DNA from: a virus
Lineage: Duplodnaviria; Heunggongvirae; Uroviricota; Caudoviricetes
Strand: one strand, 5' to 3'
Virus record (IMG/VR): IMGVR_UViG_2778261165_000015
DNA: 4,766 nucleotides
Each line of letters begins with the position of its first letter. The stretch's first letter is position 1. Under the pieces are notes generated by a model. That model was not told the origin of the DNA. It saw only the letters and a list, made by a program, of their open reading frames with translations, and made no database searches. This document shows positions 2,268-4,766 of this stretch, one piece after another. The translations under genes were made by a program, and so were the position numbers.

Positions 2268-2978
2268 TCAAAGTGCTTTGCTGTATTTCTGAGAAATCTT
2301 AGTAAGCTGCTCAATATCAGCCTGCATAGCAATCTTCTTCTGTGATTCATATTCACTAATAATCGCTTTCATGCTATCAAGTTCTTTTTTAAGCTTTTGC
2401 TTTAACTTATCCAGCTTATCGGAGTAATGCTTAGTCAGATTAGCTTCAGCTAGCTGAAGAATCTCTTCATCTGTTTTATCAGTCATCAGAACAAATTGAC
2501 CAGAACCCCTTAATGCTTGTCTGACATCAATTAACCGGAACCCTTCAGGGATACTTTGAAGAACTTTAGGAACGTCTTCAATCGCTGTACCAAAACCATC
2601 ATTAAAGTTCCCTTCATAATAGATAAACGGGTTTGACTTAATCTCGTAAGCAATATCATATTCTGAAGGTTTCGAGGTTTCTTCGAAGTTCTTAACAGCA
2701 TCGTAAGCAATATCAAGTCTAAGACGCTGTGATTTTAAAGCTGGGTAATATTCACGCTCAAGATTAAATAGTGCTTCACTTTTGCAGATATCTGGCATTT
2801 CTTGAGGTTCAGGAGACACAAAGGTAATTTCCTTTGGTGACATCTTTAGCGATTGCTCAAGCTTAATTCTTTCATCGTGTTCTTTACGCTGAATAGCGAT
2901 AGCTGGATGTTCAGTCGTTGGTGACCAGTCACCGAAGCTATCAATCACTTTGCCATTAATGTAAATATCGTTTGTCAT
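2268..2978 (-). CDS. Hypothetical protein (236 aa) with a C-terminal coiled-coil-like region
   Basis: ORF with SD GAGG 9 nt upstream of the ATG. C-terminal ~60 residues are heptad-like and K/E/L/Q-rich (KLDKLKQKLKKELDSMKAIISEYESQKKIAMQADIEQL). No recognisable catalytic motif. Confidence 0.7.
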   Translation of the reverse strand: MTNDIYINGKVIDSFGDWSPTTEHPAIAIQRKEHDERIKLEQSLKMSPKEITFVSPEPQEMPDICKSEALFNLEREYYPALKSQRLRLDIAYDAVKNFEETSKPSEYDIAYEIKSNPFIYYEGNFNDGFGTAIEDVPKVLQSIPEGFRLIDVRQALRGSGQFVLMTDKTDEEILQLAEANLTKHYSDKLDKLKQKLKKELDSMKAIISEYESQKKIAMQADIEQLTKISQKYSKAL

Positions 2979-3003
2979 TATTTTTTTCCTCTAAGTGTGG
3001 TTA

Positions 3004-3081
3004 TTTCTTAATAGAGCACCTTCAACGCCAATACACTTAGAAGATGACTTAACGATTTATTAAAGATGCTCTATTAAGAAA
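3004..3081. repeat. Perfect 15-bp inverted repeat (TTTCTTAATAGAGCA) with arms at 3004-3018 and 3067-3081, 48-bp spacer
   Basis: Read directly; the reverse complement of 3067-3081 equals 3004-3018 exactly. Lies between hairpin H1 and the RBS of the 236-aa gene. Confidence 0.75.
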
Positions 3082-3110
3082 AGCCCTAAACATAATCTGT
3101 GAAGGGCTTT
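3071..3110 (-). terminator. Terminator-like hairpin H1 (AAAGCCCT / AGGGCTTT stem, 15-nt loop) followed by UUUUCUU on the minus strand
   Basis: Stem 3080-3087 / 3103-3110. The U-tract overlaps one arm of the 15-bp inverted repeat. Short stem, so termination is likely partial. Confidence 0.4.
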
Positions 3111-3170
3111 GAAGGTTTGCTTTATAACGTTAACGAAGTTTCAGGAAAAACTTTCTTTAAAAGCTCTGTT

Positions 3171-3209
3171 TAAAAACTCTTAAAGAAAGCCCTAATCATG
3201 AGTTAGGGC
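3171..3209 (-). terminator. Rho-independent terminator H2 (GCCCTAA / TTAGGGC stem, 7-nt loop) followed by UUUCUUUAAGAGUUUUU
   Basis: Perfect 7-bp stem at 3189-3195 / 3203-3209 with a U-rich tract on the minus strand. Shares the AAGAAA(A)GCCCTAA module with H1. Confidence 0.55.
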
Positions 3210-3255
3210 AAAGCTGTAAAGGATTCAAACGAATGAACAAAGACTTTTTGAGATA

Positions 3256-3280
3256 GCCTCTCAAGTTATATAAGAGAGGC
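3256..3280 (-). other. Stem-loop H3 (GCCTCTC / GAGAGGC, 11-nt loop) within the leader; no adjacent U-tract
   Basis: Perfect 7-bp inverted repeat read directly; flanks are not U-rich on either strand, so probably not a terminator. Confidence 0.4.
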
Positions 3281-3377
3281 CATGACGAAAAGCATTGCAC
3301 CTTTCCAACTCAGAATATCCATCCATCGGATTATTGAAAATATGATTTTAGGAAAAATTGCTCTTCCTATATATACA

Positions 3378-3406
3378 ATTATGTCATGCTCAAGGTTATT
3401 TGTCAA
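3378..3406 (-). promoter_or_regulatory. Near-consensus sigma70-type promoter: -35 TTGACA, 17-bp spacer, extended -10 TGaCATAAT
   Basis: Minus strand reads gctgTTGACAaataaccttgagcaTGaCATAATtgtatat. -35 is 6/6, spacer 17, -10 is 5/6 with a TG at -15/-14. Predicted start site near 3371, transcribing toward the terminators and the 236-aa gene. Confidence 0.55.
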
Positions 3407-3431
3407 CAGCTTTTAACAGATTGATAACAAT

Positions 3432-3497
3432 CTATACTTTAATAGACGCACCTGCAATCATACCAACCAATACAAAACAGATAATCACCAATTCCAT
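3432..3497 (-). CDS. Candidate 21-aa hydrophobic micro-protein (MELVIICFVLVGMIAGASIKV), a single predicted transmembrane helix
   Basis: Not in the supplied ORF track (too short). ATG overlaps the upstream TAA stop (TAATG). SD AAGGTGG sits 7 nt upstream. A 17-residue uninterrupted hydrophobic core is flanked by E and K. TAG stop at 3432-3434. Confidence 0.4.
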   Translation of the reverse strand: MELVIICFVLVGMIAGASIKV

Positions 3498-3820
3498 TAA
3501 TGCACCACCTTCGAATCCGTCACCAAAATATTGTCAGCGTACAAAATTGCTATAGCTGCCTTGAGATATCTTTCAGGGCTAACGCTGTATTTGTTCGTTT
3601 GCTCAATAACCAATCTTTTCATATTACTGTCTGTAATTGGTAACATCATTCGAGGCTCGTTAAACTCCACCGAGTGAATAAAGTCAGAGATGCTTTCCGC
3701 ATTATCAGCCATTAACTCTAACAACTTATCAAAGTCAATGCTAACACCTACATCAGTGAAAGCCTGAATCATCATGGCGGTGTCGGTATCAATAAAAATC
3801 TGTAGTGGGAAATTATTCAT
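3497..3820 (-). CDS. Hypothetical protein (107 aa from ATG 3820; the track's longer 144-aa form starts at 3931)
   Basis: ATG at 3820 has an AGGA SD with 8-nt spacing. The extra 37 codons upstream (3821-3931) are GC-richer with atypical codons (CCG, CTC, AGG), lack a good SD and overlap an inverted repeat, so the shorter start is preferred. No cysteines, no recognised motif. Confidence 0.55.
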   Translation of the reverse strand: MNNFPLQIFIDTDTAMMIQAFTDVGVSIDFDKLLELMADNAESISDFIHSVEFNEPRMMLPITDSNMKRLVIEQTNKYSVSPERYLKAAIAILYADNILVTDSKVVH

Positions 3821-3899
3821 TTTTAAAATCCTATAAAAACACATCTTAAATCTGCCAAAATAACCATTCTGAGGCCAGTAACCATGCGGGTTACAGAGG

Positions 3900-3946
3900 G
3901 AGTGAGACACCTTAGTAATAGGGTAGCTCATCTTTGAGTCTCACTC
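3900..3946. repeat. 9-bp inverted repeat GAGTGAGAC / GTCTCACTC with a 29-bp spacer, between the 128-aa and 107-aa genes
   Basis: 3900-3908 and 3938-3946 are exact reverse complements. No U-tract follows, so it looks like an operator or RNA structure rather than a terminator. Confidence 0.45.
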
Positions 3947-3958
3947 ATTCTCACAGAC

Positions 3959-4345
3959 TTACACAGACGCTTTAATCTTGTAGTATTGACTACGTGATAA
4001 GCCGTATTTCTCAGAAATATAACTTTGTGATTGTCCTTTGGTGATTGCATCAATGATTAAATCTTTATCGTATCTGTTACCGTTGGCTTTGTGCTTGTCA
4101 CTATTTTTAATAGAGTTGAAGTTCTCCATTAATTCAATGGCGTCTTTAAGGTCGCTTTCGTAAGCATAATCAAAACCTCTGATAAACTCGAAATCACCAT
4201 TATCTTTTTGTGCTTCAGCCCAGATATCAAATCTTGAGGCTAATTGCTGGTGGGTAAACTTGGGTTTATTGGTTTGTGTTACGTCTTTCCAGACTTTACC
4301 GTCAAATCTTACCAAATGGTCACGATGTTTATAAAAGTCATACAT
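3959..4345 (-). CDS. Hypothetical DNA-binding protein (128 aa) with a C-terminal resolvase/Hin-type helix-turn-helix
   Basis: Strong SD GGAGG 4 nt before the ATG, which overlaps the upstream stop (TAATG). C-terminus KGQSQSYISEKYGLSRSQYYKIK resembles the Hin/Gin recombinase HTH (GIGVSTLYRYF pattern). The ~95-aa N-terminal part is too short and lacks the serine-recombinase catalytic signature. Confidence 0.7.
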   Translation of the reverse strand: MYDFYKHRDHLVRFDGKVWKDVTQTNKPKFTHQQLASRFDIWAEAQKDNGDFEFIRGFDYAYESDLKDAIELMENFNSIKNSDKHKANGNRYDKDLIIDAITKGQSQSYISEKYGLSRSQYYKIKASV

Positions 4346-4581
4346 TAAACCTCCATCGCTAATTTGTGAATTTTGATACTTAGTAACCTTGCTAAATCCA
4401 GTCCAAAAGCATTTAAAGATTTCAGACTATCAAGGTCATCTTTCTTAATCCTGACATGGTGTCTTGCTGCCTCTAAACGACTATTAAGCAAATCCTGCTC
4501 GTTAATATCACGGTTAATTGCAAGCTTCATCACTGCTGAGTGCTGAGAGATCCCCTCATAATTTCCCCAAAGCGTAACCAT
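4345..4581 (-). CDS. Hypothetical protein (78 aa as drawn; start uncertain)
   Basis: ORF whose stop overlaps the start of the 128-aa gene. No convincing SD before ATG 4581 or the internal GTG/ATG at codons 17/18. The first 26 nt overlap the upstream partial ORF. Confidence 0.45.
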   Translation of the reverse strand: MVTLWGNYEGISQHSAVMKLAINRDINEQDLLNSRLEAARHHVRIKKDDLDSLKSLNAFGLDLARLLSIKIHKLAMEV

Positions 4582-4766
4582 GTGTGAATAAATTTTGAGC
4601 TAGTAGGGTTGCAGCCACGAGTAAGTCTTCCCTTGTTATTGTGTAGCCAGAATGCCGCAAAACTTCCATGCCTAAGCGAACTGTTGAGAGTACGTTTCGA
4701 TTTCTGACTGTGTTAGCCTGGAAGTGCTTGTCCCAACCTTGTTTCTGAGCATGAACGCCCGCAAGC
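4556..4766 (-). CDS. 3' end of a gene whose 5' part lies beyond the window (69 codons visible, C-terminus ...LFTHGYALGKL)
   Basis: Stop-free minus-strand frame from the window edge to TGA at 4556-4558, not in the supplied track because no start is in the window. GC content here is visibly higher (~47%) than the rest. Confidence 0.45.
   Translation of the reverse strand, partial: LAGVHAQKQGWDKHFQANTVRNRNVLSTVRLGMEVLRHSGYTITREDLLVAATLLAQNLFTHGYALGKL

Follow-up and report, generated by a model that had tools for sequence, protein, structure and literature searches.

Does the 21-codon open reading frame (ORF) that follows gene h108 on a mobile island of Escherichia coli encode a real membrane peptide, or is it a short ORF that arose by chance? 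The question is raised by a 4,766-nt stretch of DNA (the window; IMG/VR virus record IMGVR_UViG_2778261165_000015, Caudoviricetes), whose minus strand carries this micro-ORF directly behind h108, a gene of 107 amino acids (aa). A previous model-made reading of the letters of the window (the sequence-only reading) had taken the micro-ORF for the gene of a small membrane peptide, translationally coupled to its upstream neighbor. The comparison of related loci points in the same direction. The micro-ORF is very probably a genuine gene for a translated membrane peptide, because its frame, start codon, stop/start overlap and Shine-Dalgarno (SD) sequence are conserved across loci that have two types of peptide and, upstream, three different protein C-termini, and because its codons bear the marks of purifying selection.

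The anatomy proposed for the micro-ORF is present in the window. Base 3497 is common to the ATG of the micro-ORF and to the TAA stop codon of h108 (3499-3497), which creates a TAATG overlap on the minus strand. The SD-like sequence AAGGTGGTG is well spaced from this ATG, matches the consensus AAGGAGGTG at 8 of 9 positions and has a predicted duplex free energy with the 3′ end of the 16S rRNA of -8.6 kcal/mol, a value reached by no more than 2% of the 149 ATGs that the window has on its two strands; it outscores all annotated genes in the window except one, with the tape measure, 69-aa, 236-aa and 107-aa genes having weaker sites. In the encoded peptide, residues 3-19 (LVIICFVLVGMIAGASI) are uncharged and strongly hydrophobic, the mean Kyte-Doolittle hydropathy of residues 2-18 is 2.3, and a GxxxG motif is formed by G12-M-I-A-G16. 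A single transmembrane helix is predicted, by a hydropathy estimate and not by a dedicated transmembrane predictor, in agreement with the 17-residue hydrophobic helix suggested earlier. The strong promoter that had been noted just beyond the micro-ORF is also in place. However, the window contains 55 ORFs of at least 20 aa, and therefore a 21-codon ORF alone proves nothing; it is conservation that raises the micro-ORF above chance.

In a first comparison of 19 annotated E. coli loci (RefSeq) and three loci of other Escherichia, all 22 have an open frame that begins in the stop/start overlap, and it is annotated in none of them. A second collection, including 9 IMG/VR and 96 metagenome contigs, was anchored on the exact promoter 19-mer AAGCTGTTGACAAATAACC, which avoids selection on the ORF itself. 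Five of its 126 promoter matches have too little upstream sequence and two are unrelated, leaving 119 loci that were scored. The ORF is intact and begins in a stop/start overlap in 116 of these (about 97%), with a length of 25 codons in 87 loci and 21 codons in 29. The overlap, kept in 116/116 intact loci, reads TAATG, or TGATG in one. Loci anchored on h108, some of which have variant promoters, likewise retain the ORF. As for the claim that the gene had escaped annotation, it extends beyond the RefSeq loci: among 15 billion predicted proteins, none is identical to any of the seven peptide variants looked up.

The intact ORFs encode two types of peptide. Type A (21 aa) reads MELVIICFVL[VI]GMIAGASIKV, and type B (25 aa; for example, MGLIIAWTLLGLFVGCWVGNTVNKN) reads M[GTAM]L[IV][IV][AL]WT[LAV]LGL[FL][VC]GC[WIL][VMIA][GNSA]N[TAE][VA]N[KR]N. 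The two types hardly align (about 6 identities). Both follow the pattern M-x-L-[VI]-I...L...G-x-x-x-G and have a C-terminal end that is polar or basic, and an uncharged core of about 17 residues with a Kyte-Doolittle hydropathy of 2.1-2.3 is found in all peptide types. Type B comprises 54 distinct nucleotide alleles encoding 28 peptides, with the frame open in 54/54. Its variable sites at codon positions 1, 2 and 3 number 14, 11 and 20, respectively, and its synonymous (pS) and nonsynonymous (pN) diversities are 0.486 and 0.147, resulting in a pN/pS of 0.30; the less diverse type A, with 7 alleles, has a pN/pS of 0.36. Eight residues of type B are invariant (W7, T8, G11, G15, C16, N20, N23 and N25), and its stop codon alternates between TGA and TAA at a fixed position. 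Moreover, both other sense frames are closed in 54/54 type B alleles, and every antisense frame is interrupted in some of them (9-54 alleles).

The initiation signals are kept over diverse upstream sequences. The ATG and the overlap persist no matter which of three C-terminal sequences the upstream protein ends in (...DSKVVH*, ...DS[VM]R[VI]H* and ...NPYSEVM*), the last of which belongs to an h108 allele of only ~25% identity. A purine-rich SD motif (GGTGG, GAGGG, GAGGA or GAGGT) is located 5-9 nt upstream of the ATG in 17 of 20 upstream variants, covering 112 of the 116 intact loci, and the remaining three variants carry GGCGG or GGGG in its place. In nearly all intact loci the SD lies inside the upstream ORF, which together with the overlap is the arrangement of translationally coupled genes. 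At the other end, the stop codon lies 19-21 nt before the anchor promoter 17-mer in 114/116 loci. The sequence-only reading had named conservation of the ORF and its SD in related elements as one of the checks to be made, and interruption of the frame in homologous regions with conserved flanking genes as one of the signs that would speak against a gene; as the counts indicate, both ORF and SD are largely retained, and the frame is altered in only three of the 119 loci. Overall, the micro-ORF has what characterizes genes of small inner-membrane proteins, with a product shorter than 50 aa, one predicted helix, a conserved ORF, start codon and ribosome binding site (RBS), and purifying selection. 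This pattern is the one expected of a translated gene under selection at the level of its peptide; neither an ORF that arose by chance nor a signal in DNA or RNA would be expected to produce it. The coordinates of the micro-ORF and of its surroundings are listed in Table 1.

Table 1. The micro-ORF and neighboring features of the window (4,766 nt; position 1 is its first letter).
Feature	Position	Strand	Description	Basis
Micro-ORF	3432..3497	-	21 codons + TAG, encodes MELVIICFVLVGMIAGASIKV; ATG 3497-3495, TAG 3434-3432	sequence, conservation, hydropathy
Shine-Dalgarno-like sequence	3503..3511	-	AAGGTGGTG, within the 3′ end of the upstream gene; 5 nt to the micro-ORF ATG	
Gene h108	3497..3820	-	upstream gene, 107 aa; TAA stop overlaps the micro-ORF ATG; hypothetical protein in RefSeq	
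128-aa gene	3959..4345	-	same operon; weak C-terminal helix-turn-helix match (HTH_28, E 0.0033, below the Pfam cutoff)	profile match, synteny
End of IS10/ISVsa5 copy	4543..4766		leaves the next upstream gene, the h93 homologue, truncated and the operon detached from its own promoter	terminal repeat read
Sigma-70 promoter	3378..3406	-	TTGACA-17-(TG)CATAAT, 11/12 match, 25 nt past the micro-ORF stop	
Direct TGTTRN repeats	3403..3429	-	candidate operator; TGTTAT 3429-3424, TGTTAA 3418-3413, TGTTGA 3408-3403	
Untranslated leader	2979..3371	-	from the promoter to the 236-aa gene; 5′ hairpin, hairpin 3283-3253, terminator-like hairpin 3209-3189	

These data bear directly on the alternatives to a peptide-coding gene. 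AT-rich DNA favors codons for Ile, Leu, Phe and Val, short ORFs are plentiful in the window, and a 65-aa plus-strand ORF (3358-3555) overlaps the micro-ORF, so that its conservation could be ascribed to chance, to an overlapping DNA or RNA signal, or to a gene on the opposite strand. This explanation is very improbable: synonymous sites vary freely while the frame remains open in every type B allele, the other sense frames are always closed, and the ATG and overlap persist across three unrelated upstream C-termini, with the SD kept across nearly all upstream variants. Nor are the related loci near-clonal copies, as neighboring genes drop to 22-45% identity, and an opposite-strand gene is excluded by its broken frames. 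Even less credible is a C-terminal membrane anchor fused to the h108 protein, a predicted DNA binder, by programmed -1 frameshifting near the h108 stop codon. The micro-ORF does lie in the -1 frame with respect to h108, and in most alleles no stop interrupts this frame over the 11-13 codons before the ATG. However, the upstream open stretch ranges from 3 to 54 codons and in nine loci amounts to just 3, none of the three upstream contexts shows a slippery heptamer, and the retained ATG and SD would be unneeded by a fusion; the frameshift candidate was rejected on account of this variable upstream frame. A third possibility is that only the act of translation matters, with ribosomes preventing Rho-dependent polarity or modulating access to the operator, promoter and leader that follow. 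The stop codon abuts the first TGTTA repeat, its distance to the promoter is nearly fixed, and no terminator was found between the micro-ORF and the promoter, all of which would suit such a role. In that case, however, amino acids need not be conserved, whereas type B combines a low pN/pS with its eight invariant residues, and both hydrophobicity and GxxxG are kept in two barely alignable peptide types. A role in cis without a functional peptide is improbable, if less so than the two preceding alternatives.

The remaining alternative concerns function. Ibs peptides have 18-19 aa, and the micro-peptide resembles them in its size and almost purely hydrophobic composition. It could thus be a stand-alone membrane-damaging toxin of the Ibs, TisB or Hok kind, or a minimal holin, that depolarizes the membrane and kills or lyses the cell, for example as part of an abortive-infection or addiction module. 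GxxxG motifs favor oligomerization, and the timing of death or lysis would matter to a phage-related island. The type I toxins IbsA-E (with SibA-E) and TisB (with IstR-1) are, like the micro-peptide, very small (18-29 aa), hydrophobic and predicted to enter the inner membrane. Yet the likeness to Ibs or TisB put forward in the sequence-only reading is one of size and composition, and it did not hold further. Pfam and NCBIfam gave no match to Ibs, TisB or any other toxin family, Rfam identified no antitoxin small RNA (sRNA) in the window, and the promoter of Table 1 is the sole promoter-like site in 2900-4000 on either strand, leaving none on the antisense strand. In contrast to type I toxins, the micro-ORF has no antisense or divergent sRNA of the known families, no promoter of its own, no structured 5′ untranslated region and no separately controlled mRNA; it is the coupled last cistron of an operon without a promoter between the genes, and its strong, accessible SD and coupling to a regulator gene differ from type I toxin mRNAs, which are held translationally silent. 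A coupled poison would also be costly if h108 were made in resting cells to control the adjacent near-consensus promoter. In particular, if an operon-encoded repressor is needed in the resting state, the coupled peptide would be made in healthy cells, which would argue against a poison, although here one inference is built on another. As to a holin, antiholin or lysis accessory protein, a predicted transmembrane helix is a common feature, with at least one transmembrane domain indicated by hydropathy. However, the island has no lysis cassette next to the micro-ORF or elsewhere: no endolysin, spanin or other lysis enzyme was found among its genes, which encode a recombinase, a Dit-like protein, a tape measure protein, DNA-binding proteins, an HNH-AP2 protein and proteins without assignment. 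A stand-alone toxin or minimal holin is unlikely.

Several observations weigh against the interpretation as a coupled membrane-peptide gene. Three of the 119 loci have lost or altered the ORF, making it dispensable at least in the short term: in L121, an 11-nt deletion between GCTTGG repeats shifts the frame; in L087 (metagenome contig ORRA01002752.1), an HNH endonuclease gene replaces h108 and the 5′ half of the ORF; and in L002, the stop codon is mutated to CGA, extending the frame to 34 codons by readthrough. Four peptide variants had no significant family match in Pfam, NCBIfam or PHROGs even with hits listed up to an E-value of 10, the only and insignificant hits being to transmembrane helices of PetG (E 0.2) and of two PHROGs of unknown function. 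Neither peptide type matched any of 50,697 phage records by tblastn, a result to which the low-complexity filter may contribute, and a full-text literature search on the peptide strings found no paper. The copy in the window itself may be silent, having been severed from the operon promoter by IS10. Finally, peptide type shows no association with the alleles of h236, h72, tape measure, Dit, recombinase, h93 or h128 and only a marginal one with h184 (p = 0.04). A clear association exists only with its neighbor: peptide type and h108 allele share 0.29 bits of mutual information (p < 0.0005), as physical linkage predicts. The absence of co-variation with island genes beyond this neighbor therefore indicates no partner within the island, and makes a target in the host or in a helper phage more likely.

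With these points taken into account, the claims of a genuine gene, of expression coupled to h108 and of membrane insertion are jointly probable, leaving the target aside. Under this interpretation, ribosomes terminating on h108 would restart at the overlapping ATG of the micro-ORF, aided by the SD embedded in h108, and because of this coupled restart the peptide would be made whenever the DNA-binding protein is made, and in roughly equal amounts. The 21-25-residue product would then insert in the inner membrane in a single pass, with its Lys/Asn-rich C-terminus in the cytoplasm, and the GxxxG face would pack against the peptide itself or against a membrane protein of the host or helper phage. 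Such packing would in turn affect the envelope at a step important to a phage-dependent island, which might be cell division, the timing of lysis or the entry of phage DNA, and the peptide is probably no free-standing poison. Given a real peptide, there is an even chance that it modulates an envelope protein or process; a membrane-damaging toxin or holin-like activity is considerably less likely, and some other function is given the same lesser weight. A modulator of a phage-relevant envelope process is accordingly favored over a free-standing toxin, and the role of accessory lysis or membrane modulator, which had also been suggested, is possible.

The best-fitting kind of known protein is that of the bacterial small inner-membrane proteins that bind larger membrane proteins, which is a functional class and not a family of homologues. 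Members shorter than 50 aa include MgtS, AcrZ, KdpF and CydX in E. coli and SidA in Caulobacter; they have one hydrophobic helix, are missed by gene callers and bind larger membrane proteins. Like them, the micro-peptide has a single predicted helix and little soluble part, and its gene is recognizable by a conserved ORF and RBS. It has no sequence similarity to them, is shorter than most (21-25 aa), and differs in that its gene lies on a mobile phage-related island and is coupled to the gene of a DNA-binding protein. A parallel closer to phage biology is gp15 of HK97, reportedly a small inner-membrane protein by which the prophage excludes superinfection, acting through the tape measure protein of the incoming phage and its DNA entry. 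The micro-peptide is likewise a small, predicted inner-membrane protein of a phage-derived element, and the island has a tape measure gene of its own; however, the two are unrelated in sequence, and micro-peptide type does not co-vary with the tape measure allele.

The nearest precedent in context, likened by its description, is LidI of PLE, a phage satellite in Vibrio cholerae. The lidI ORFs encode small transmembrane proteins of 66 or 121 aa in two allele groups, had been unannotated and were found by synteny (PMC7182436). LidI was shown experimentally to alter lysis timing by collapsing lysis inhibition, and no homologues are reported outside PLEs (PMC7182436). Both cases present a small, unannotated ORF for a transmembrane product (predicted in the present case) in two divergent groups, on an island with a serine recombinase that is, presumably here as well, parasitic on phages. 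PLE depends on a virulent myovirus, and the present island, a presumed satellite, is linked to Felix O1-like phages. The micro-peptide differs from LidI in being much shorter, and its proposed role is read from sequence. A more specific proposal follows the same parallel: the peptide would be the membrane effector of an undescribed E. coli satellite-like island dependent on virulent Felix O1-like myoviruses, made together with a TraY-like regulator, and would bind an inner-membrane protein of the host or helper phage through GxxxG, resetting lysis timing or blocking phage DNA entry. In this full form the proposal is speculative and rather unlikely; if it applied, a peptide of 21-25 residues would do, at minimal size, the work of LidI or of a superinfection-exclusion protein.

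The micro-ORF is the last cistron of a leftward operon, h184-h93-h128-h108-micro. The h108 protein is predicted to be a tandem ribbon-helix-helix (RHH), TraY-like DNA binder. This lead comes from a structure model alone, built on a shallow alignment, as the homologue listing gave near-identical proteins only, and sequence-profile searches against PDB, Pfam, NCBIfam, PADLOC and phage genomes returned nothing. Among the loci, HNH endonuclease genes are inserted at varying operon positions (L006, L015, L016, L018, L019 and L087), consistent with homing endonucleases that mark the recombination boundaries of a mosaic.

The promoter that follows the micro-ORF has a core that is nearly invariant in more than 100 loci. 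The candidate operator repeats (TGTTAY, TGTTAA and TGTTGA) have a period of 10-11 bp and extend from just past the micro-ORF stop into the -35 hexamer. The same array, TGTTAC-N5-TGTTAA-N5/6-TTGACA, is found upstream of h184 at the head of the operon (L002, ~19700-19732, minus strand), and the island has four hits to the TGTTA array motif compared to 0.37 expected, which suggests that the operon promoter and the promoter after the micro-ORF share one regulator. The operator array is almost invariant, while h108 and other candidate regulators vary widely; this argues that the binding protein is either better conserved than these or keeps the residues that touch the DNA.

Downstream of this promoter, the untranslated leader is 320-520 nt long in nearly all loci. 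A hairpin of 10-13 bp (3283-3253) is preserved through at least three unrelated stem sequences among 32 variants, and the leader has an invariant core, GAAAGGTGCAATGCTTTTCG. A search of the whole window against Rfam, with E-values up to 1, gave only a chance miRNA hit, and the leader matches no Rfam family. Its function may be that of an sRNA, or the leader may be subject to attenuation or antitermination in the manner of lambda PR'-tR'. A 9-codon leader ORF (ATGCTTTTCGTC...) was considered as a coding sequence and rejected, as its sequence and length change freely among variants. The leader also contains a run of GATG tetranucleotides (CCGATGGATGGATATTC, window 3313-3330, minus strand) whose copy number differs between loci, from 2 to 5; slipped-strand events may have caused this variation in length within transcribed sequence.

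The window belongs to an island of ~11-12 kb inserted between tonB and yciI (11680-23276 in L002), with a constant gene order in about 50 longer loci. A large serine recombinase gene on the plus strand is followed by minus-strand genes for a Dit-like tail protein, a tape measure protein, a protein of ~70 aa and the 236-aa protein; after the untranslated gap come the micro-ORF, h108, h128 (or an alternative gene), h93 and h184, and then a small plus-strand gene, h62, and variable cargo. The alleles are highly divergent and reassort freely, with identities of 40-100% for the tape measure, 22-100% for h236, 27-100% for the recombinase and about 25-100% for h108. The best phage relatives of the tape measure protein are those of Felix O1-like myoviruses (about 30% identity), and the Dit-like protein is 72% identical to the product of the gene directly downstream of the tape measure gene in these phages; for h236 and h108, no phage homologues were found. 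Metagenome contig L072 (11,233 nt) contains the whole element in circularly permuted form with a 55-nt terminal overlap, corresponding to a circle of 11,178 bp. A small size, a highly mosaic make-up, a serine recombinase, a partial tail module and the capacity for a circular form agree with a phage satellite, or a parasite of a similar kind, that would exploit virulent Felix O1-like phages; the pair of PLE and ICP1 in V. cholerae comes to mind. In the incomplete library that was searched, no description of the island came up.

Standard annotation does not see micro-proteins of 20-25 residues; nonetheless, the region that contains this gene (3250-3850) is found at 70-100% identity in 476 of 5,426 complete E. 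coli genomes (roughly 1/11), and also in E. albertii and another Escherichia species. If translated, the micro-ORF would add a conserved membrane component to a widespread, uncharacterized mobile island whose tail genes have their relatives in virulent Felix O1-like phages, a group in use or considered for the control of Salmonella and E. coli. A small peptide in two interchangeable types would be an unusually tractable system for the manipulation of the cell envelope by a mobile element. The surrounding island, its shared operator-promoter pair and the structured leader may, however, be more novel objects than the peptide.

Other observations concern the rest of the island. Positions 1-127 of the window are foreign DNA that truncates the tape measure gene; short segments of a few coliphage records match it at 100% identity. 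The closest genome has further IS3, IS21 and Tn5-like insertions within the island. The 236-aa gene (2268-2978, minus strand), upstream of the tape measure gene, is called a 'transposase' in many RefSeq records. This name looks unfounded because the gene has no phage homologue and no significant match in Pfam, NCBIfam, PHROG or PADLOC; by position, it could encode a tail assembly chaperone. Further, the island has a second small predicted membrane protein, of 62 aa (L002:19957-20145, plus strand), with the hydrophobic stretch GGGIGLIAGLLLRYFIVRVFIVF; its gene is transcribed divergently from the operon, and it has 73-95% identity in other loci.
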